Assembly (NCBI GenBank): GCA_963715985.1
Contig: CAVQSP010000017.1
Span: 224,001-288,000, forward strand
DNA length: 64,000 nt
From: an uncultured Thermoleophilia bacterium
GTDB lineage: Bacteria; Actinomycetota; Thermoleophilia; UBA2241
Direction of reading: 5' to 3'
Below, piece after piece: positions 50,210 to 61,052 of the stretch. The first letter of the stretch is position 1, and every line of letters starts with the position of its first letter. The notes under the pieces were generated by a model. It was given only the letters and a program-made list of their open reading frames with translations. It was not told where the DNA came from and searched no databases. A program made the position numbers and the translations under genes.

Positions 50210-51877
50210 TCAGCCTGCCGCGTGCTCCCCGGCGGTCTCGACGACGCCGGCCGCCATCCTCGCTGCCGCGGCCTCGGCCGGCCGTGCGCGCAGGGCGAAG
50301 GCGCACAGGCCGCCGGCGACGGCGAGGACGACGGCCACGACGAACGTGCTCGCCACGGCGTCGGTGAACCAGCTCTGGAACAGCGTCCTCATCATCGCCA
50401 GCACGGCGGCCGGCAGGCCCGAATCGCCGCTCGGTATCGACAGCTGCATGGCGCCGCTGCCGGCTCCGGCGATGATCTTCTGCTTGATGGCGTCGGGGAT
50501 GCCCTGGATGGCCTGGATGCCGTCGGTGATGTTGGCGGTGACGCGGTTCTGCAGCACGGCTCCGAGCACGGCGATGCCCATGAGGCTGCCCACCTGGCGC
50601 ATCGTGGAGAGCACGCCGGAGGCGTTGCCGACGCGCTCCCTGGGCGCTGTGGCCATCACCGCCGACGTCACCGGCGCGACCGCCAGGCCGATGCCGATCC
50701 CGGAGATGAGGAACGGGGCCAGCAGGCTGAGCGGCGTGGTGTCCGGCGAGATCCTGGCGATGCCGGGCACGAGTCCGGCCATCCAGGCCAGGCCGAGCGC
50801 GAGCAGGAACATGCCCGCCGCCACGATCCACCTGCTGCCCAGGCGGTCGGACAGCATGCCGGCGGCGGGGGCGGCGAAGATGATGATCACCGACATCGGC
50901 GCCATCACGAGCCCGGCCTTGATGGCGCTGTACCCGAGCACGGACTGCAGGAAGATGGGGATGGTGAAGAAGGCGCCCATCATGGCCGCGCTGAGCAGCA
51001 GCCCGGTGGCGTTGCCCGCCGCGAACGTCGGGCTGCGGAACAGCGAGAAGTCGATGAGCGGCTGGCTCACGCGGTGTTCGCGCCAGTAGAAGAGCCCGAA
51101 CGCCACGGCGGCCGCGGCGAACAAGCCGAGGATGGTGGCCGACGTCCACCCGTACTGCTGGCCCTCGACGAGCGCGAACGTGAGGCAGAACAGGGAGGCC
51201 GAGATGAGGCCGACGCCCGGAAGGTCGAGCGTCTGGACGGCGGTCGGGTTCTTGCTCTCCGGCACGATGCGCAGCGTGAGCAGGACGCCCACCACGCCGA
51301 TGGGGATGTTGACGAGGAAGATCCAGCGCCAGCTGTCGCCGGCGGCCGGCCAGGAGACGTACTGCACGATGATCCCGCCGAGGGTGGGGCCGATGGCGGT
51401 GGCGAGGCCGGACACGCCGCCCCACACGCCCATGGCGGCGCCGCGCTTACCGGCGGGGAAGACGGCGGCGATGATGCTCAGCGTGGCCGGCATCATCGCC
51501 GCCCCGCCGATGCCCTGCAGCACGCGGGCCGCGATCAGCAGGTAGATGCTGGGCGCCAGGCCGCAGGCCGCCGAGCCGATCGTGAAGAGCACCATGCCGA
51601 TCATGAAGAGCTTGCGCCGCCCCCACAGGTCGCCGAAGCGGCCGAGCGTGACCAGCAGCACGGCGAACGCCAGGATGTAGGCGTTCATGACCCACTCGAT
51701 GTTGCCGAACGTCGTGTCGAAGTAGTCCTGGATGTGCGGGATGGCGATGTTCACGATCGTGCCGTCGAGCAGGATCATGAAGAGGCCGAGGCACAGGACG
51801 GCGAGCACCGCCCAGGGGCTGCGGACGGGGCCGGAAGACGAGGTCGCGGCCGCGGTCGCGGGGGAGGGTGAGCTCAT
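50210..51877 (-). CDS. DHA2 (EmrB/QacA) MFS efflux transporter
   Basis: FMILLD.TIVN.A.P.I, GRFGD..GRR, WRWIFLVN.PIG, RQVG..GIAV. Confidence 0.95.
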   Translation of the reverse strand: MSSPSPATAAATSSSGPVRSPWAVLAVLCLGLFMILLDGTIVNIAIPHIQDYFDTTFGNIEWVMNAYILAFAVLLVTLGRFGDLWGRRKLFMIGMVLFTIGSAACGLAPSIYLLIAARVLQGIGGAAMMPATLSIIAAVFPAGKRGAAMGVWGGVSGLATAIGPTLGGIIVQYVSWPAAGDSWRWIFLVNIPIGVVGVLLTLRIVPESKNPTAVQTLDLPGVGLISASLFCLTFALVEGQQYGWTSATILGLFAAAAVAFGLFYWREHRVSQPLIDFSLFRSPTFAAGNATGLLLSAAMMGAFFTIPIFLQSVLGYSAIKAGLVMAPMSVIIIFAAPAAGMLSDRLGSRWIVAAGMFLLALGLAWMAGLVPGIARISPDTTPLSLLAPFLISGIGIGLAVAPVTSAVMATAPRERVGNASGVLSTMRQVGSLMGIAVLGAVLQNRVTANITDGIQAIQGIPDAIKQKIIAGAGSGAMQLSIPSGDSGLPAAVLAMMRTLFQSWFTDAVASTFVVAVVLAVAGGLCAFALRARPAEAAAARMAAGVVETAGEHAAG

Positions 51878-52350
51878 CTGTCGGTCCGTCCTTTCAGTTC
51901 GTCGATGAGGGCGCGCAAGAAGGCGACGAGAGTGTGCGGGTCGAGCTCGGGGAAGCGCGCGAAGACGGCGGCGAGGCGCTGGCTCCACTCGGCCATCACG
52001 TCGGTCGCATAGCCCTCTGCGCGGCCCGCAAGACGCACGCGCACGATGCGCCTGTCGGACTCGTCGGGGTCGCGGCGGACCACACCCTTCTCCAGGAGGC
52101 GCGTGACCAGCTCGCTGGCGGCGGCGCGCGAGATCGCGAGGCCGTCGGCGAACTCGCCCATCGTCACCGATTCGCGATGGGCGAGGAACACGACGGCCTC
52201 CATCTGGCGGCCCGTGAGCGCCTTCGGGATCGGCTCACCCCGGCCGTGGTGGTGGGGCGCCGAGTCGTACAGCGCGACGCCCAGCTCCGGGAGGAGGCGG
52301 GCGAGCTGGGCGCTGACGTCGCCGCTGGTCTGTTCGTCCGGGGAAATCAT
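51874..52350 (-). CDS. MarR family regulator
   Basis: SRAAASELV.RL..KG.V.R..D..DRR.V.V; ATGA overlap with the efflux gene. Confidence 0.9.
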   Translation of the reverse strand: MISPDEQTSGDVSAQLARLLPELGVALYDSAPHHHGRGEPIPKALTGRQMEAVVFLAHRESVTMGEFADGLAISRAAASELVTRLLEKGVVRRDPDESDRRIVRVRLAGRAEGYATDVMAEWSQRLAAVFARFPELDPHTLVAFLRALIDELKGRTDR

Positions 52351-53305: not shown

Positions 53306-54192
53306 GGCCGGTCGGCACGCGCATGATGGCGATCTTCAATCCGCACTCCGGGGGCGGCGAGTTCCGCCGCGACCTGCCGCTGATCGTGGATTCGCTCCGC
53401 GGCCTCGGCTACGAAGTGGACGAGCGCGAGACGCAGGCCGTGGGCGACGCCATCCGTCTGGCCCGCCAGGCCGTGGAACTGGGCTACGACGTCGTCTGCG
53501 CCATCGGCGGCGACGGCACCGTCAACGAGACGCTGAACGGGCTGGCGGGCACCGAGGTGCCGCTCGCCATCATCCCCACGGGGACGGTCAACGTCCTCGC
53601 CATGGAGCTCGGCATCCCCTTCGAGCCGCCGGACGCGGTGCGTCTTCTGGAGACGGGCACGGTGTCGTGGATCGACCTCGGTCTCGCCGGCGACCGCCAC
53701 TTCGGCCTCATGGCCGGTGTAGGCATGGACGCTGCCGTGGTGGCTTCGCTCAACCCGGCCATGAAGAAGGCGTTCAAGGAGGCGGCTTTCGCCGTGCAGG
53801 GGTTCGCCAACTACCTCACGAGGGAGGAGCCCCTCATCAGGGTCACCTGCGCCGAGCGCACCGTGGAGGGCTACTTCGCGGTGTTCGGCAACTCCTCCAA
53901 CTACGGTGGCGGTTTCGGCATCACCCCGCTGGCCGACATGCGCGACGGGCTGCTCGACGTGTGCGTGCTCACGGACAAGTCGTTCCTCAGCACCATCTGG
54001 TACTGGACCGCCGCGCTCATCAATGCCCACATCAAGCATCCCAAGGTCGAGTACTTCCGCACGGAGCACGCGGAGATCGTGACGGTGGAGGCGGGCAAGG
54101 AAGTGCTGGTGCAGACCGACGGCGAGATGGCCGGGCGCCTGCCGCTCACGTGCAACGTGGTGCCGCGGGCCCTGCGCGTGATCGTGCCGTAG
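53302..54192 (+). CDS. Diacylglycerol/lipid kinase family (YegS/DagK-like)
   Basis: NP.SG, GGDGT.NE..NG, IP.GT.N.LA, DGLLDV, Q.DGE. Confidence 0.92.
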   Translation: MRPVGTRMMAIFNPHSGGGEFRRDLPLIVDSLRGLGYEVDERETQAVGDAIRLARQAVELGYDVVCAIGGDGTVNETLNGLAGTEVPLAIIPTGTVNVLAMELGIPFEPPDAVRLLETGTVSWIDLGLAGDRHFGLMAGVGMDAAVVASLNPAMKKAFKEAAFAVQGFANYLTREEPLIRVTCAERTVEGYFAVFGNSSNYGGGFGITPLADMRDGLLDVCVLTDKSFLSTIWYWTAALINAHIKHPKVEYFRTEHAEIVTVEAGKEVLVQTDGEMAGRLPLTCNVVPRALRVIVP

Positions 54193-54332
54193 CACCCGGC
54201 GTTCGTCCCGCGGTGCAGCGCACCGTGTCCCCCGGCGGCCGCGACGAGGAGAGCCGCGCGGAGGAGGCCGTGGACCGCAGCCTCGCCGAGCTTCAGCCGG
54301 CGCCGCCGGCCGCTTCTGTCAGCGGCGGCGCC

Positions 54333-54926
54333 TCACAGCCCCATCACCTTGGCGAGCGTGCGCAGCCGCTCCGCATACTCCTTGCGCGCCGCCGCGTCGC
54401 GGGCGCGCAGCTCATCCGGAGTGGCCACGGGCACGATCTTGAAGGCCGGGTTGTCGAACAGGCGCAGCTCGAGCGAGTCGCCCTGCTCGTAGGGCCGGTG
54501 CTTGAACATCCTGCCGAGCAGGTAGCGCGCGGTGGCTTCGCCCACTGGGAGCACGTAGTGGGGCGTGGTGATCGTGAGCTCGCGTGAGAGGAACGGGTAG
54601 CAGTTGTCCTGCTCAGCCGCCTCGGGGAGGCGCATCTCGCAGGCGGTGCGCGGGACGCACTTGGTGAGCGTGGTGACGTAGACCTTGTCCCGGCTCTCCC
54701 GCAGCGCCGGCATGAACTCGGCGAGTCCCTCGAGCGCCGCGGCGCCGGCGGGGTCCCCGCCCTGCTCGTCGGCCGGGTCGGGATGCAGGGAGACGACCAT
54801 CACCGCGCAGTGCGGGTGGCCGGCTCCGGGGACGGCGCGGAGGCGGCAGGCGACGAGCTTCTCGCACTTGGTGCAGTCGCCGACGCTCCGCGCCAGCTGG
54901 TCCAGTTGTTCGACCGCGTCTTCCAT
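54333..54926 (-). CDS. Family-4 uracil-DNA glycosylase-fold protein with degenerate catalytic motifs
   Basis: CTKC..L...R..AVPG.G, YVT...KC.P, C.PFL.REL....P..V..VG..A; GE.PG and HP motifs absent. Confidence 0.75.
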   Translation of the reverse strand: MEDAVEQLDQLARSVGDCTKCEKLVACRLRAVPGAGHPHCAVMVVSLHPDPADEQGGDPAGAAALEGLAEFMPALRESRDKVYVTTLTKCVPRTACEMRLPEAAEQDNCYPFLSRELTITTPHYVLPVGEATARYLLGRMFKHRPYEQGDSLELRLFDNPAFKIVPVATPDELRARDAAARKEYAERLRTLAKVMGL

Positions 54927-54980
54927 GGTGGGTCTCCTCTCTGGTGGCCGGCGCCGGTGCCCCGGCGGCGGATGTGGTGC

Positions 54981-55322
54981 TCAGCTCTCGCCGGTGACGA
55001 GGCGGTAGTTGCAGATCAGGGCGTCCGGACGGCCGACGAGGGCCAGCATGAGCTCGTCACCGAACGGGGCGAGGACGATGTTGAGCCCGTCGAACTCGAC
55101 GGAGATGTAGCGCGCCGCGCTCTGCCCGAGCTCGGCCGCGAGGCGGATGCCTATGTCGATGACGCCGGCCGCCTGGGCGGCCACGGCTTCGGTCGCGAAG
55201 CCGTCGTCGGCGTCGGCCGCCACCACGAAGCCGTCGCCCGAGATGAGCAGGGCGGCGACGATGCCCGGGTGCGCCCGGTAGGGTGCGAGCCTGGCGGCGA
55301 GTACGTCTGCCGGATCGGTCAT
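54981..55322 (-). CDS. Roadblock/LC7 (MglB-like) protein
   Basis: GIVAALLIS.DGFVV, EAVAA.AA......LA.ELG......VEFD...IVL. Confidence 0.85.
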   Translation of the reverse strand: MTDPADVLAARLAPYRAHPGIVAALLISGDGFVVAADADDGFATEAVAAQAAGVIDIGIRLAAELGQSAARYISVEFDGLNIVLAPFGDELMLALVGRPDALICNYRLVTGES

Positions 55323-55627
55323 CGTGCCTCCATGGCCTTTTGCAGGTCCGCCCGTACTGCGGCCGCGAAGCGGTCGGCGGACGCGTCGTCGGCGAACACG
55401 CGGGTGTAGCCGCCGGCGAGGCCGGCGAGCTCGCTGAGAAAGATGGTGCTGCGCGGGATAGGGGAGGAGCCGGCGGCCGCGGGAGCGTCCACGACGCCGT
55501 CCAGCGGGAGCTCTACCAGCGTGTCGCCGCTGAGGAAGAGCCGGTTGGCTTCGCGCCCGGACAGGCGCACCAGCACGCGCACCGCGACCCCGTCCGGGAC
55601 GAGCTCCTTGGCGATGTCGATCTCCAC
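55319..55627 (-). CDS. Hypothetical protein (102 aa), coupled to the roadblock gene
   Basis: ATGA overlap; GGAGG for the next gene inside its 3' end; TAGTCT 6 nt before GTG. Confidence 0.7.
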   Translation of the reverse strand: MEIDIAKELVPDGVAVRVLVRLSGREANRLFLSGDTLVELPLDGVVDAPAAAGSSPIPRSTIFLSELAGLAGGYTRVFADDASADRFAAAVRADLQKAMEAR

Positions 55628-55741
55628 AACCGAAGACTAGCGAGGCGGCAGAACGGTGGCAAGACGCGCCGGCGAGCGGGTGGTGCGGCGCCGGGCACCA
55701 CGGGTGGTCCGGCGGCGCGGCGGAGGCCTCTGGCGCAGCGC

Positions 55742-56728
55742 CTACTGTGCCGCGGCCAGAGGGACGACGGTGCGCGCCGGCTCGACGACGGGCTGCGGCG
55801 CGTAGGCTTCATCGCGCGCCGCAGCGAGCAGGTCCGGGAGCGTGCGGATGGTCGGGAAGGAGGCGGCGCCGCTGCTGAGCGTCTGGCGCCGCCCGCCGAT
55901 GAGGCCCGAGCTGATGTCGTGGCCGATCTCGGCCGCCAGGTCGCGGGCCTCCGTCGAGGTGCGTCCGGGGAGCGCGAGCACGAACGAGTCGGCGCGCACG
56001 CGGAACGCCGTGTCGTCGTGGGCGAGGCGCCGCTGGATGCGCCGCGCCACGCCGCGGACGAGTTCCTCGCTGCGCTCCGGCCCGAGGAAGTCGCGCGTGT
56101 CCTGGAAGTGGTCGAGGCGCAGGACGACCACGCTGAGCGGCTCGTGCTGGTCCAGCGCTGCCGCCGTGGCCGCGGCGAGCACGTCGTCCAGGCGTTCGCT
56201 CGTGTAGAGGCCGGTAGTGCTGTCGACGAGGGAGGCGCGCCGTGGTCGGGCCGGCGTGCGCCGCAGCCGCGTCGCCGCGATCCAGCCGCCGGCGGCGAGC
56301 ACCAGGACTTTGGCCACACCGCCGACGCGGCTTCCGCCCAGCGAGGGGTCGGCGATCGCGAGCACGATGAGCAGGAGGAGCGTCGGCGCCAGCAGGTACG
56401 GCCACTCCCCGCGAGAGGCGAACGCGAGCTGGCAGAGTGCCAGCACCGGGATCGCGCCGAGCAGCCAGCTCTCCGCGCCGCCGGAGAACACGAGGGCGCA
56501 GCCGAGCAGGAGCCAGTCCGCTGCCGCGAAGGTGAGGGCGAGGTCGTTGCCTCGCGCCCGGGCTACCTGGATGGACCAGAGGCCGAGGAGGATGCCGACC
56601 GTCGCGGGCACGGCGGCGAAGCCGTGGCCCAGCGCCAGTGCGGCGACCGTGAGAACTGCGAAGAAGAGGGTGCGGAAACGGCCTCGCAACAGTGCCGGCT
56701 CGCGGCGTTTGCGAGGCGGACGGCTCAC
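55742..56728 (-). CDS. Membrane protein with degenerate GGDEF domain
   Basis: 5-6 TM; DSTTGLY, LRLDHFQ, FRVRADSF in place of RxGGDEF, SSG.A.FP. Confidence 0.85.
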   Translation of the reverse strand: MSRPPRKRREPALLRGRFRTLFFAVLTVAALALGHGFAAVPATVGILLGLWSIQVARARGNDLALTFAAADWLLLGCALVFSGGAESWLLGAIPVLALCQLAFASRGEWPYLLAPTLLLLIVLAIADPSLGGSRVGGVAKVLVLAAGGWIAATRLRRTPARPRRASLVDSTTGLYTSERLDDVLAAATAAALDQHEPLSVVVLRLDHFQDTRDFLGPERSEELVRGVARRIQRRLAHDDTAFRVRADSFVLALPGRTSTEARDLAAEIGHDISSGLIGGRRQTLSSGAASFPTIRTLPDLLAAARDEAYAPQPVVEPARTVVPLAAAQ

Positions 56729-56784
56729 CAGGAAGCCGTCCGGGTCATGCAGGGCGGTAGGGGACCGTGCAGCATGCCGAGACC

Positions 56785-56833
56785 ATTCTGCATGATTCCT
56801 TCAAATCCTTCAAGGTCAAGTTCAGGGTTGAAG
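56785..56833 (-). promoter_or_regulatory. Sigma70-like promoter TTGAAG-N17-CAGAAT within a TTCAA-repeat region
   Basis: + strand: attctg 56785-90, cttcaa 56808-13; TCCTTCAA twice; CTTCAA...TTGAAG inverted repeat. Confidence 0.45.
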
Positions 56834-56915
56834 TTGCCCGAACGAAAGGGTGCCGGCGTGCCGTGCAAACGTGCCCCTGCGCGCCTGCCTTCGCCTCGGC
56901 TATAATCGATGCCCC

Positions 56916-58703
56916 GTGGAACGAGCCCTCTTCTTCTCAGGTAACGAGGCCATCGCCCACGGCGCCGTGCGCGCCGGGGCCGCCTTCGCCTGCGGCTACC
57001 CCGGCACCCCCTCCACCGAGATCGTCGAGACCGCGGCCCGGCTCGAGGGCATCCAGACCGAGTGGTGCATCAACGAGAAGGCCGCTCTCGAGACCGCGGT
57101 CGGCGCGTCACTGGCCGGCGTCCGCGCTCTTGTGACGATGAAGCACGTCGGGCTCAACGTGGCCGCCGATCCGTTCATGACGCTCTCGCTCACGGGGGTC
57201 AATGCCGGGCTCGTCGTGGTGAGTGCAGACGACCCGGGCATGCATTCGTCCCAGAACGAGCAGGACAACCGCACGTACGCTCGCTTCGCCAAGATCCCCA
57301 TGGTCGAACCGTCGGACAGCCAGGAGGCCTACGACTTCGTCGCCGAGGCCTTCGCCCTGTCGGAGGAGTTCGACACGCCGGTCCTGCTGCGTTCCACGAC
57401 GCGGCTCTCGCACGGCCGCAGCAAGGTCATACCCAGGGTGGCCGTGGACGTGGAGGCGCGCGAGTACGTGCGCGACATCAGCAAGTACGTCATGGTCCCC
57501 CAGTACGCGCGCGTCAGGAACCGTCTCGTGCTCGAGCGACTGGCGCGCCTGCGCGCCCGCGCCGAGGAGTCGCCGCTCAACATCCTCGAGGCCGGCACCG
57601 CGGACTTCGGCATCATCGCCTCGGGCGTCGCCTACTCGTACGCTCGCGAGGCGTTCCCCAAGGCCTGGTTCCTCAAGCTGGGCATGTCGAACCCGCTCCC
57701 GTACGCCAAGGTGGCGCGCCTGTACCGGCAGGTCTCGCGCGTGCTGGTGGTGGAGGAGCTCGACCCGTTCATCGAGGAGCAGGTGCGGGCGCTCGGGCTG
57801 CCGGTGATCGGCAAGGAGGCCTTGCCGGCCGACGGCGAGTTCGACCAGGAGCTCGTGTTCCGCTTGCTGGAGCCGTTCCTCACACGCAAGCCGCCGCGCC
57901 GCCGGCGTCCCGTCTTCCCGCCCGAGCTGCGCCCCGCGCAGCAGCCACGACCGCTCGCCGGCCTGCCGGTCCGCCCGCCCGTCCTCTGCCCGGGCTGCTC
58001 GCACCGCGCGGTGTTCACGGCGCTGCGCCGGCACAAGCTGGCGCCCATGGGCGACATCGGCTGCTACACGCTGGGCGCCCTGCCCCCGTTGCTGGCCATG
58101 GACAGCTGCCTCTGCATGGGCGCCGCCATCGGCATGATGGCCGGCTTCAACAAGGCGCTCGGGAGCAAGGCCGCCGCCGCGGTCATCGGCGACTCCACGT
58201 TCTTCCACTCGGGCATCACGCCGCTCATCGACGCGCACTACAACGAGGCCTCCGGGCTCGTCCTGATCCTGGACAACGGCACCACCGCCATGACCGGCCA
58301 CCAGGGCCACCCGGGCACCGGGATGCGGCCGGACCGCACCCAGGGTCCTGCCGTGGACCTGCAGAAGCTCTGCGAGGGCATCGGCGTGCGCTGCGTCACC
58401 GTGGACGCCACCGACTTCCCGGCCCTGGACGCGGCCGTCAAGGAAGAGGTGCATGCACCCGGGCTCGGCGTCATCGTCGCCCTTGCGCCGTGCGTCCTCA
58501 CGGTGCGGGGAGTGCCGGGGCGCGTCGACGTGGACGACGAGCGCTGCAACCTCTGCGGCCTGTGTCTGGACATCGGCTGCCCGGCCCTCGCCGTCGGCGA
58601 CGGCGCCGTCACCATCACCGACAGCTGCAGCGGCTGCGGATTGTGCGTGGAGGTCTGCCGCCGCGGCGCGCTCACCTGCGCGGAGCCGGGGGACGAGGCG
58701 TGA
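56916..58703 (+). CDS. iorA: Indolepyruvate:ferredoxin oxidoreductase alpha subunit
   Basis: GNEAIA.G, GYPGTPSTEI, NEK.A.E, MKHVGLNVAAD, SSQNEQD.R, LCPGC.H, GDIGCY, GDSTF.HSG, 2x4Fe-4S; TATAAT at 56901. Confidence 0.96.
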   Translation: MERALFFSGNEAIAHGAVRAGAAFACGYPGTPSTEIVETAARLEGIQTEWCINEKAALETAVGASLAGVRALVTMKHVGLNVAADPFMTLSLTGVNAGLVVVSADDPGMHSSQNEQDNRTYARFAKIPMVEPSDSQEAYDFVAEAFALSEEFDTPVLLRSTTRLSHGRSKVIPRVAVDVEAREYVRDISKYVMVPQYARVRNRLVLERLARLRARAEESPLNILEAGTADFGIIASGVAYSYAREAFPKAWFLKLGMSNPLPYAKVARLYRQVSRVLVVEELDPFIEEQVRALGLPVIGKEALPADGEFDQELVFRLLEPFLTRKPPRRRRPVFPPELRPAQQPRPLAGLPVRPPVLCPGCSHRAVFTALRRHKLAPMGDIGCYTLGALPPLLAMDSCLCMGAAIGMMAGFNKALGSKAAAAVIGDSTFFHSGITPLIDAHYNEASGLVLILDNGTTAMTGHQGHPGTGMRPDRTQGPAVDLQKLCEGIGVRCVTVDATDFPALDAAVKEEVHAPGLGVIVALAPCVLTVRGVPGRVDVDDERCNLCGLCLDIGCPALAVGDGAVTITDSCSGCGLCVEVCRRGALTCAEPGDEA

Positions 58704-59296
58704 ACGGCATCACCACCGTCGCGCTCGCCGGCGTCGGCGGCCAGGGCATCCTGCTGGCCGCCGCCGTCCTGGCCGAGACCGCCACGGCCGAGGGCCTGGA
58801 CGTCAAGGCCAGCGAGGTCAAGGGCATGGCGCAGCGCGGCGGAAGCGTGCTGTCCACGGTGCGTTTCGGTGCGAGGGTCTGGTCGCCGGTCTCGCCGCAC
58901 GCCGAGGTCGTCATCGCCACCGAGGAGCTCGAGGGCTTCAGGGCGCTGGAGGTCATCGTGCCGGACGGCACGCTGGTCTGCGCGGCCACCACGCACATCC
59001 TGCCGGGCAGCGTGTTGCGCGGGGATGAAGACTACCCGCTCGATCTGGCCGCCGCCGCGGCGGAGCGCGGCGTGCGCCTGCTCGCCGTGGACGCGGAGGG
59101 CATCGCCCGCGAGGCCGGCTCCGCTCGTGCGGTCAACATCGCCTTGCTGGGCGCGGCCAGCACCGTGCTGCCCTTCTCCGCGGAGTCGTGGCGCCGCGGG
59201 CTCGCGGCGGCCGTGCCCGCCAAGATCCTGGAAGTCAACGAGCGTGCGTTCGCGCTGGGTCGCGACGCCGCCAGCGACGAGGAGGTCGCGTCGTGA
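58700..59296 (+). CDS. iorB: Indolepyruvate oxidoreductase beta subunit
   Basis: GVGGQG, SE..GMAQRGGSV, N..LLG, N..AF..G. Confidence 0.94.
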   Translation: MNGITTVALAGVGGQGILLAAAVLAETATAEGLDVKASEVKGMAQRGGSVLSTVRFGARVWSPVSPHAEVVIATEELEGFRALEVIVPDGTLVCAATTHILPGSVLRGDEDYPLDLAAAAAERGVRLLAVDAEGIAREAGSARAVNIALLGAASTVLPFSAESWRRGLAAAVPAKILEVNERAFALGRDAASDEEVAS

Positions 59297-59706
59297 AGGT
59301 CACGCAGCTCACAGCCTTTCTCGAGAACCGCAGCGGACGGCTCGCCGAGGTGGCCGATATCCTCGGCGCAGCCGGCATCAACATCCGCGGCTTCTCGACC
59401 ACGGAGGCCGCCGAGTACGGCATCGTCAGGCTCATCGTCACCGACCCGGAGAAGGCCCGGCAGCTGCTGCACGACGCCGGCTTCACCACGCACTTCTCGC
59501 AGGTGGTGTGCGTGCGCGTCTCCGACGAGCCCGGCGGGCTGGCCCGCATCCTGGACGAGCTCGCCGCGGCCGGCGTCTCCATCGACTACCTGTACAGCAT
59601 CTCCTTCGAATACATCTGCTTCGCCTTGCGCGACGTCGACCGCGCCGTCCAGCTGCTCGAGGGCAAGGTGGAGATGCTCTCCGACCAGGAGGTGCTGGCG
59701 CTGTGA
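59293..59706 (+). CDS. Tandem ACT domain protein
   Basis: QL..FLEN..GRLA, GINIR, GI.RLIV, D.PGGLA; usual ior/paaK partner. Confidence 0.9.
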   Translation: MKVTQLTAFLENRSGRLAEVADILGAAGINIRGFSTTEAAEYGIVRLIVTDPEKARQLLHDAGFTTHFSQVVCVRVSDEPGGLARILDELAAAGVSIDYLYSISFEYICFALRDVDRAVQLLEGKVEMLSDQEVLAL

Positions 59707-61052
59707 GCGCCACGGACGTCACCCACCTCCTGCCCGACGAGGCCGGCGGGTTGTGCTGGGAGCCGGCCGCCGAGACCATGCCCAGAGCGGACCTCGAGGC
59801 GCTGCAGCTGGAGCGCCTGCGCGCCACCCTGCAGAACGCCTCGGACAACGTCCCGTTCTACCGCAAGAAGCTCGCGGCGGCCGGCATCTCGCCGGACGGG
59901 GTCGGCAGCCTCGGCGACGTCTCGAGCCTGCCGTTCACGACCAAGGTCGATCTGCGCGACCACTATCCCTTCGGCATGTTCGCGCGGCCGCGGGACCAGA
60001 TCGTGCGCGTGCACGCCAGCTCCGGTACGACCGGCAACCCGACCACGGTGGGCTACACGCGTGCCGACATCGCCACGTGGGGTCACCTCATCGCACGCAC
60101 GCTGGCCGCCGGCGGCGTCGAACCCGGCGACCTGCTGCAGAACGCCTTCGGCTACGGGCTCTTCACCGGCGGCCTGGGCCTGCACTTCGGCGCCGAGCTC
60201 CTCGGTTGCACGGTGGTGCCGATCTCCGGCGGCAATACCGAGCGCCAGCTCAAGATCATGCGCGACTTCGGCGCCACCGCCCTCAGCTGCACGCCGTCCT
60301 ACGCGATGTACCTCGCCGACGCGGCCCGCGACCGCGGCCTGCGCCCCGAGGACCTGCCCATCCGCGTGGCCTTCCTCGGGGCTGAGCCCTGGACCAACGA
60401 GCTGCGTCTGCAGATCGAGGCCGGCCTCGGCATCGACGCCCTGGACATCTACGGGCTCTCCGAGATGGGCGGCCCCGGCGTCGCCTACGAGTGCCTCTGC
60501 AAGGCCGGCATGCACATCAACGAGGACCACTACCTGGCGGAGATCGTCGACCCCGACACGCTGCGCCCGCTGCCCGAGGGCGAGGTGGGCGAGCTCGTGT
60601 TCACCACGCTCACGCGCGAGGCCCAGCCGCTGATCCGCTACCGTACCCGCGACCTCTGCACCCTGACCTCGGAGCCGTGCGCCTGCGGGCGCACGTCCGC
60701 GCGCATGGCCAAGCCCATCGGGCGCAGCGACGACATGCTCATCATCCGCGGCGTCAACGTGTTCCCCAGCCAGATCGAAGAGGTGCTGATGGGGATCCCC
60801 GAGATCGAGCCGCACTACCAGATCGTCGTGGACCGCAAGGGGTACCTGGACGTCATCGAAGTGTGGGTAGAGGTGGGCGAGGACATCTTCGCCGAGACCA
60901 TGGGTGACCTCGAGCGCTTCCAGCGCAGCGTGCAGGCCAAGATCTACAACGTGCTCAACATCCAGGTGGCCGTCAAGCTCAAGGAGCCGCGGGCGATCCA
61001 GCGCTCCGAGGGCAAGGCCGTCCGCGTCGTGGACCGGCGCGCGGCGCTGTAG
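59703..61052 (+). CDS. paaK: Phenylacetate-CoA ligase
   Basis: LPFT.K.DLRD.YPFG, HASSGTTG.P, YGLFTGGLG, GAEPW, YGLSE, RYRTRD, GR.DDM.IIRGVNVFP.QIE. Confidence 0.95.
   Translation: MSATDVTHLLPDEAGGLCWEPAAETMPRADLEALQLERLRATLQNASDNVPFYRKKLAAAGISPDGVGSLGDVSSLPFTTKVDLRDHYPFGMFARPRDQIVRVHASSGTTGNPTTVGYTRADIATWGHLIARTLAAGGVEPGDLLQNAFGYGLFTGGLGLHFGAELLGCTVVPISGGNTERQLKIMRDFGATALSCTPSYAMYLADAARDRGLRPEDLPIRVAFLGAEPWTNELRLQIEAGLGIDALDIYGLSEMGGPGVAYECLCKAGMHINEDHYLAEIVDPDTLRPLPEGEVGELVFTTLTREAQPLIRYRTRDLCTLTSEPCACGRTSARMAKPIGRSDDMLIIRGVNVFPSQIEEVLMGIPEIEPHYQIVVDRKGYLDVIEVWVEVGEDIFAETMGDLERFQRSVQAKIYNVLNIQVAVKLKEPRAIQRSEGKAVRVVDRRAAL

Follow-up and report, generated by a model that had tools for sequence, protein, structure and literature searches.

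What do four co-oriented genes, two of which resemble enzymes that have lost their catalytic residues, encode in the genome of an uncultured Thermoleophilia bacterium? The genes lie in a stretch of 64,000 nucleotides (nt), hereafter the window (G000:C17:224001-288000), of a genome of 4.35 Mb in 22 contigs with about 72% G+C. According to the listing of open reading frames (ORFs), they are four minus-strand ORFs that occupy positions 54333-56728. They encode a GGDEF-like membrane protein, a protein of 102 amino acids that we call U102, a Roadblock/LC7 protein, and a paralogue of the family-4 uracil-DNA glycosylases (UDG) that we call the pseudo-UDG. A preliminary description of the window had proposed that they form one signalling operon without a GTPase. 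Our results indicate that the conserved unit is formed by U102 and the Roadblock protein. The reading that we favour, and to which we give about an even chance of being correct, is that this pair is a bipartite module, probably accessory to an MglA switch, and that the locus is a mosaic and not one four-part machine. In what follows, f1 stands for the window's own family and f4 for a second family of the class. The features of the locus are as follows:

55742..56728, minus strand: GGDEF-like membrane protein of 328 amino acids, with 5-6 hydrophobic segments in residues 22-153 and a doubly degenerate GGDEF domain
55634..55662, minus strand: predicted promoter of the U102-Roadblock pair, with a -35 element TTGCCA (55662-55657), a 17-nt spacer, a -10 element TAGTCT (55639-55634), and 6 nt before the GTG at 55627
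55319..55627, minus strand: U102, 102 amino acids with a GTG start, member of a new small family and dedicated partner of the Roadblock protein
54981..55322, minus strand: Roadblock/LC7 protein of 113 amino acids, a short orphan with a 4-nt ATGA overlap with the U102 stop
54948..54971, minus strand: GC-rich stem-loop just past the Roadblock stop, with no U tract
54934-54937, minus strand: Shine-Dalgarno sequence GGAG, 7 nt before the ATG of the pseudo-UDG gene
54333..54926, minus strand: pseudo-UDG of 197 amino acids, a family-4 UDG paralogue with its catalytic motifs lost and its Fe-S cysteines kept

Comparison of the sequences indicates that all four genes are real and are intact in relatives. 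The arrangement given in the preliminary description, with four co-oriented genes, the ATGA overlap, a gap of 54 nt, and the motif TAGTCT-N6-GTG, is present in the sequence.

The U102-Roadblock pair and its promoter

U102 is a genuine gene and belongs to a new family of alpha/beta proteins of about 100 amino acids. Neither a Pfam family nor an NCBIfam model matched it; when Pfam was searched at E values up to 5 with 24 members, only scattered single matches were obtained, none of them to DUF742. A profile search of the PDB with U102 gave no match below E 0.77, and a search of the Protein Atlas gave no usable match. Within the genus, the protein keeps 55-68% identity, and a profile of 24 homologues retrieved 410 representatives of near-identical clusters, whose annotations are absent or "hypothetical", and, from 1.84 billion proteins, no more than 47 representatives at the 50% identity level. 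The AlphaFold2 model of U102 (predicted local distance difference test, pLDDT, 88.7; predicted template modelling score, pTM, 0.80) has the element order beta-beta-alpha-beta-beta-alpha-beta-alpha and ends in a helix of 21 residues. Foldseek found no fold match in the PDB for this model (best E 1.6), and the best result of the wide VIA search was a PH domain with a Z of 5.2 over 56 residues; the 50 matches listed included neither a Roadblock nor a longin chain, although a remote relation may exist. That U102 might be a spurious ORF was ruled out by its conservation, the fusions described below, and its confident predicted fold.

The Roadblock protein matched Robl_LC7 (PF03259) over residues 14-95 with an E value of 2e-9 and 37.5 bits, against a cut-off of 23, and the best PDB match of its profile was a Thorarchaeota Roadblock protein (7f8m, E 6e-11). 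It had no NCBIfam match, so the MglB equivalog model did not recognise it. The fold was assessed on a fused member of the family, P0136, and not on the window protein. The predicted Roadblock domain of P0136 has the order alpha-beta-beta-alpha-beta-beta-beta, without a C-terminal helix. Against solved Roadblock structures, it gave a Foldseek E value of 3e-7 and a probability of 1.00 over about 95 aligned columns, and template modelling scores, normalised to the target, of 0.63-0.83 were obtained for its superposition on Roadblocks of Asgard, Streptomyces, MglB, and LAMTOR; it can also be superposed on the dynein Roadblock.

The two genes are held together in several ways. The ATGA overlap of the window spans 55319-55322; the same 4-nt overlap of U102 stop and Roadblock start recurs throughout the genus loci, and the two f4 genes either abut or overlap. 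The Roadblock gene is directly downstream of U102 in all 23 loci of the genus, at each of the seven loci from other f1 genera, and in all but one of the 16 f4 loci. The sole f4 exception (L025:4311-4844, minus strand) has an ORF of 177 amino acids without a Pfam match between U102 and Roadblock. A U102-Roadblock complex is inferred because the two form one polypeptide in some relatives: six of the 12 longer U102-family representatives that were scanned bear a C-terminal Robl_LC7 domain, and further fused genes lie in L059, L061, and L067, loci that represent three genera. In these fusions, the C-terminal helix of U102 lies about 15 residues before the Roadblock domain. The fusion is not a sequencing error, since open frames of 247-254 amino acids occur in each of the three genomes of genus g94; a further fused row, P0141, consists of one sequence and may be an artefact of a frameshift. 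The tree of Roadblock domains separates f1 from f4 cleanly (100/100); within it, the fused forms are interspersed with unfused ones and fall into two or more groups, each with its own support.

The distribution of the pair is narrow and bounded by family. U102 was found in 51 of 55 f1 genomes, in 48 of 55 f4 genomes, and in none of 190 genomes from ten other families of the class. The search of other classes of the phylum, with 301 genomes, returned three matches, which are the window's genome and two f4 genomes, and none outside the class. In f4, all 16 loci, each from a different genome and together covering at least 13 genera, have the order (rsmG-)parA-parB-(SIMPL)-U102-Roadblock. These loci (L023-L025 and L057-L069) have the pair co-oriented behind parA-parB, usually after a SIMPL/DUF541 gene, and the pair could there be part of an origin-proximal par operon. 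The 3' neighbour in f4 is often an ATP:corrinoid adenosyltransferase gene of the CobA/BtuR type, with convergent genes in the other cases. No GGDEF or UDG match was found among the ORFs scanned in the 16 f4 loci.

The pair has also been lost as a unit in two lineages. In G042, a member of the same genus with a genome of 1.7 Mb in one contig that is 98% complete, the pair is gone and the GGDEF-like gene lies 250 bp from the pseudo-UDG gene:

L078, G042:C1:1379150-1389740: pair-less locus, with the pseudo-GGDEF and pseudo-UDG genes side by side

In genus g23 of f4, none of four genomes has U102, and one of them, G097, has a single Roadblock gene, which is beside mglA. The conserved unit is thus U102 plus Roadblock, and the coupling of the two that had been proposed at the outset is borne out by the overlap, the fusions, and the joint losses.

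A conserved promoter precedes the pair. The pattern TTGNNN-17/18-TANNNT-6/7-GTG is found before U102 in 27 of 28 f1 loci, with the TTG and the TA...T invariant and the spacer and upstream sequence variable; this full -35/-10 footprint substantiates the leaderless promoter of the preliminary description. The promoter predicts a leaderless mRNA that would start on the start codon, and leaderless mRNAs are common in Actinobacteria. Because the pair has its own conserved promoter, the GGDEF-like gene would be a separate transcription unit. A promoter-like site, TTGACC-16-AATCAT, is located at 56792-56819 on the minus strand, about 65 nt upstream of the GTG of the GGDEF-like gene. This site was the only sigma-70-type match in a promoter and terminator scan of positions 54000-57000, which missed the U102 promoter and revealed no U-tract terminators in the locus.

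Downstream of the pair, 54 nt separate the Roadblock stop from the ATG of the pseudo-UDG gene. No promoter of the latter is visible within this gap, and the gene may be read through from the U102-Roadblock promoter. The hairpin that follows the Roadblock gene has z < -1.5 in 14 of 20 relatives (median -2.2), with arms that differ in sequence yet pair. The window's own hairpin is weak (z -0.8), and its spacers are no more stable than shuffles (z -0.7 and +0.9). RNAalifold found no consensus structure in the alignment of the Roadblock-UDG spacer, because indels misalign the stems.

The locus is present in 23 DNA sequencing runs from wetland or soil and, with a small share, in one RNA-library run. 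The contigs of the RNA-library run include a single contig of 203 nt within U102 (55330-55532, one mismatch) and none that bridges two genes, which speaks neither for nor against transcription. This run is labelled as a fish gut metagenome, an odd habitat beside those of the DNA runs.

The two flanking pseudoenzymes

The GGDEF-like protein matches Pfam GGDEF (PF00990) with an E value of 4.6e-16 over residues 167-304, within a presumed cytoplasmic domain of residues 160-328. Its signature reads RADSF; in 14 aligned orthologues, the pattern at this position is R/H/A/G-x-D-[STAV]-[FL], with neither GG nor E in any of them. At the position that we take, from PleD, to be that of the RxxD I-site, the window protein has AHDD, and RxxD is not kept in the orthologues. 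The diguanylate cyclase signature is lost and the protein appears to be dead as a cyclase; as the I-site RxxD is also missing, the protein is unlikely to bind cyclic di-GMP in the known way. Across the genome, 25 GGDEF matches were obtained, the majority far stronger than that of the locus copy, which indicates that cyclic di-GMP signalling is present and that the locus copy is an outlier. A search for the N-terminal membrane domain of the protein recovered it from all 25 f1 genomes sampled and from none of 25 f4 genomes.

The pseudo-UDG matches Pfam UDG (PF03167, E 4e-10) and remains far below the cut-offs of the NCBIfam family-4 UDG models (71.3 vs 250 bits and 63.4 vs 125.3 bits). Its matches to solved family-4 UDGs (4zbx, E 3.7e-15; 1ui0, E 4.8e-11) stop at residue 142. 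Motif A reads SLHPD in place of GEAPG, a T replaces the Asn of "TN", an A replaces the Phe of "PF", and an A also stands at the place that we assume to be that of the motif-B His; the roles of these residues of family 4 in catalysis and uracil contact are likewise taken as given. Cysteines C18, C21, C90, and C109 coincide in the alignment with the [4Fe-4S] cysteines of 4zbx and 1ui0, and none of them varies among 15 orthologues. The protein thus appears to be catalytically dead while retaining the family-4 cluster cysteines, and the two dead enzyme folds of the preliminary description are both recovered. Among the genomes sampled, full-length orthologues (41-79% identity) are present only in f1, in 25 of 25 genomes, and the f1 matches have no internal stops; outside f1, the pseudo-UDG is matched only by ordinary UDG paralogues, with about 30% identity across its first 140-160 residues. 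One such ordinary paralogue in the window's own genome (G000:C13:398602-399000) has 29% identity to residues 3-139 of the pseudo-UDG and sits inside an open frame of 1062 amino acids, possibly fused to another domain.

Within f1, the four genes are largely constant in order. All 23 loci of the genus have GGDEF-U102-Roadblock, and 22 of them also have the pseudo-UDG gene, which G022 lacks; split matches in L013, L017, L019, and L026 resemble frameshifts or assembly errors. Of seven other f1 genera, six have the full four-gene order at their loci; the seventh locus reaches a contig end after Roadblock, and its pseudo-UDG gene is at the start of another contig. The four genes are flanked on the GGDEF side by a divergent iorA, encoding the alpha subunit of indolepyruvate:ferredoxin oxidoreductase (TIGR03336, E 5.6e-199), and on the other side by a convergent lipid kinase gene of the YegS/DAGK type. 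In f1, iorA is always the divergent neighbour of the GGDEF-like gene, with one ORF between them in L055, and three f1 genera have MttB, EamA, or an aldehyde dehydrogenase gene inserted between the pseudo-UDG and lipid kinase genes. The four-gene synteny in f1 proves little, because the unrelated, divergent iorA is equally constant. The four-gene operon of the preliminary description therefore holds in part: its order is kept in nearly all f1 loci, but outside f1 only U102-Roadblock is kept, behind parA/parB and without GGDEF or UDG. The pseudoenzymes are specific to f1, under evident constraint, and separable from the pair in both directions.

Two gene groups near the locus were also noted. 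At 56850-61052 (plus strand), iorA is followed by an apparent iorB, an ACT-domain gene, and a gene resembling phenylacetate-CoA ligase; the cluster is of the type for aromatic 2-oxoacid catabolism, diverges from the GGDEF-like gene, and is syntenic throughout f1. Within the window, the checks covered iorA, and the POR and ACT genes were observed in L052. At 50210-52350 (minus strand), a MarR-family regulator of 158 amino acids is directly upstream of a major facilitator superfamily transporter of 592 amino acids, and the two are probably an efflux pair.

An MglA-like switch elsewhere in the genome and the competing readings

The absence of a GTPase, as stated in the preliminary description, is true of the locus and not of the genome. 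There is no GTPase gene in the locus or its flanks, so the window Roadblock gene does not lie within a few genes of mglA, as would be expected of an mglB. A genome search detected two Roadblock genes, of which the second, on contig C14, encodes 161 amino acids and matches the Thermus MglB model NF052242 (E 9e-23). Directly downstream of it is a small GTPase gene (Arf, PF00025, E 2.7e-9; small_GTP, E 1.9e-9):

L001, G000:C14:717184-720450: MglB-like/MglA-like pair (MglB-like at L001:1450-1935, MglA-like at L001:1814-2524), with an ORF of 196 amino acids without a family match upstream and a convergent VanW-domain gene downstream

The MglA-like GTPase is present in 24 of 25 f1 genomes, 22 of 25 f4 genomes, 22 of 24 genomes of a third family, f6, and 0 of 76 elsewhere, with 65-95% identity across the three families. 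In the 151 genomes common to both surveys, 42 of the 44 that bear U102 also have the GTPase. In G042, the GTPase, every Roadblock protein (MglB included), and U102 are all absent together. A link between U102-Roadblock and the MglA switch is therefore suggestive; it is not proof, because the genomes are related, f6 and g23 have MglA without the pair, and G042 is reduced.

On this basis, we propose that the core of the locus is an autonomous two-gene module of U102 and a short orphan Roadblock/LC7 protein. A dedicated promoter of the sigma-A type would produce a leaderless U102-Roadblock mRNA, and the ATGA overlap would couple the translation of the two genes. The two proteins would form one complex, possibly with the long C-terminal helix of U102 in the groove of a short Roadblock dimer, and this complex would act in trans on the MglA-like GTPase and MglB encoded elsewhere, with the accessory role of a regulator or of a localisation factor, comparable to that of RomY or MglC toward MglB in Myxococcus. 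The pseudo-GGDEF and the pseudo-UDG would be inventions of f1 that flank the module and that may feed into it as added input or output. A more specific extension, in which the pseudo-GGDEF anchors U102-Roadblock at the membrane and the Fe-S pseudo-UDG binds as a redox or DNA sensor, so that the MglA switch gains a new input/output layer made wholly of a new fold and two pseudoenzymes, seems to us improbable.

Several observations weigh against the bipartite module accessory to MglA. The model of a natural fusion has a pLDDT of 88.7 but a pTM of only 0.56, with no defined packing between the domains. The window Roadblock protein shows no significant similarity to the MglB-like protein of the genome (BLASTP E 3.1). 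Two fragmented genomes that bear U102, G050 and G143, show no MglA (in G050, a contig begins with a fragment of a Roadblock gene), and f6 and genus g23 have MglA without U102-Roadblock. The MglA link consists of a phyletic overlap among related genomes and one co-loss in a reduced genome. The constant position of the f4 pair behind parA/parB could point to another NTPase, and the f1 pseudoenzymes flank the pair exactly and are never rearranged away in the loci seen, which fits a four-part system equally well.

In that four-part system, the proteins would form one sensing machinery without a GTPase, with the pseudo-GGDEF as scaffold or input, U102-Roadblock as adaptor, and the pseudo-UDG as a redox- or DNA-linked output. 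It is the strongest of the alternatives, though still unlikely in our judgement. The order of the genes in 22 of 23 genus loci and six of seven other f1 loci, despite the insertions beyond the UDG gene, speaks for it, as do the restriction of both the GGDEF membrane domain and the pseudo-UDG to f1 (25 of 25 genomes each), where they directly flank the pair, and the fact that the pseudo-UDG gene has a Shine-Dalgarno sequence and that no promoter for it is visible in the 54-nt gap. A precedent is CdgA in the MglA-associated polar hub of Bdellovibrio (PMC3983030), and a degenerate GGDEF protein in an MglA hub is accordingly conceivable by analogy. Yet the f4 pair has neither pseudoenzyme in 16 of 16 loci, G042 retains the two pseudoenzymes but not the pair, and the pseudo-UDG is missing from G022; moreover, the pair has its own promoter and is followed by a hairpin, and the equal constancy of iorA means that the synteny may be an inherited order in one family.

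Two further alternatives keep the pair as the unit and give it another task. The pair could regulate no nucleotide switch and be a stand-alone adaptor or scaffold, for instance an assembly factor like dynein LC7 or LAMTOR4/5. The window Roadblock protein is of the short, LC7-like type, and a survey of MglB homologues counts 328 of 749 as orphans of unknown role (PMC4316618). This reading must contend with the near confinement of the pair to MglA-bearing genomes (42 of 44), and we consider it rather doubtful. Least probable of all is that the pair serves another NTPase or process unrelated to MglA, such as chromosome partition by ParA/ParB. All 16 f4 pairs are co-oriented with parA and/or parB and lie at most about 3 kb downstream of them, often directly after parB or parB-SIMPL, and the Roadblock superfamily was reportedly implicated in NTPase regulation generally by Koonin and Aravind in 2000. 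However, parAB does not adjoin the pair in f1, it was MglA/MglB that G042 lost along with the pair, and we know of no Roadblock-ParA interaction. As all 16 loci come from one family, the par position is again an inherited order. We therefore retain the bipartite module, probably accessory to the MglA switch, as our preferred reading.

Relation to known Roadblock systems

The U102-Roadblock pairing is a putative Roadblock-based regulatory module with an accessory partner that is not described in the literature searched. The papers found on Roadblock/MglB with GGDEF, on UDG with Roadblock, and on prokaryotic Ras-like GTPases did not describe such a composition, in agreement with the preliminary description of it as new, and no paper was found that joins Thermoleophilia with MglA. 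The module has a clean genetic definition (a leaderless promoter of its own, genes that overlap or are fused, and joint loss), and it offers a testable link to the MglA/MglB switch in Thermoleophilia. Its distribution is restricted to two families of mostly uncultured bacteria. The selective maintenance of two well-conserved pseudoenzymes, a dead Fe-S UDG and a doubly degenerate membrane GGDEF protein, needs explaining.

The pseudoenzymes have partial counterparts. Like family-4 UDGs (4zbx, 1ui0) and UdgX, the pseudo-UDG has the four cluster cysteines aligned; unlike family-4 UDGs, it has GEAPG, the Asn, the Phe, and presumably the motif-B His all replaced. CdgA of Bdellovibrio has a degenerate GGDEF domain (GVNEF) and is a cyclic di-GMP receptor in the MglA/RomR polar hub (PMC3983030). 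The locus protein resembles it in having a GGDEF fold from which the cyclase signature is missing, and its genome likewise encodes MglA and numerous true GGDEF proteins; it differs in that it also lacks the I-site RxxD and has a polytopic N-terminal membrane domain that is specific to f1.

As in the conservons CvnA-D (PMC13343842, PMC4316618), an actinobacterial Roadblock gene adjoins here a gene for a protein of unknown function. The cluster is nevertheless not a conservon, in line with the preliminary description: the locus lacks the histidine-kinase-like CvnA, DUF742, and the CvnD-type GTPase, U102 has no DUF742 match, and neither PF03029 (CvnD-type) nor PF05331 (DUF742) has a match over the cut-off in the whole genome.

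The survey of Wuichet and Sogaard-Andersen (2015) counts about 44% of the MglB homologues (328/749) as orphans, with none characterised at that time, and notes a small, exclusively orphan actinobacterial clade (PMC4316618). Like these orphans, the window Roadblock gene is more than four genes away from a small GTPase gene; unlike them, it has an identified obligate partner family, so that one orphan Roadblock clade gains a concrete partner, a new family of about 100 amino acids without a fold match. Short Roadblock/LC7 dimers are known to take up a helix of a partner, as do dynein DLRB1 (from the intermediate chain), LAMTOR2/3 and LAMTOR4/5 (from LAMTOR1), and Odin-RBLC7 (PMC10933270). The Roadblock domain of this family is likewise predicted to lack the C-terminal helix, and U102 ends in a helix; unlike those partner helices, U102 is a folded domain and more than a helix, and its contact with the groove is conjectural.

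The closest comparison is with Myxococcus xanthus, in which MglB and RomY form a bipartite GAP (GTPase-activating protein) complex, with RomY binding MglB at low affinity (PMC9481161), and MglC is a short Roadblock paralogue (PMC4719450, PMC7949163). The host of U102-Roadblock is an actinobacterium-like Thermoleophilia, represented by a metagenome-assembled genome. Unlike RomY, U102 has no detectable relation in sequence or fold to solved proteins, and its partnership is genomic, through overlap or fusion. As with MglB/RomY and MglC, however, a Roadblock protein is joined by a small dedicated partner or paralogue in a cell that has MglA and MglB, and the genes of the partners need not adjoin mglA.

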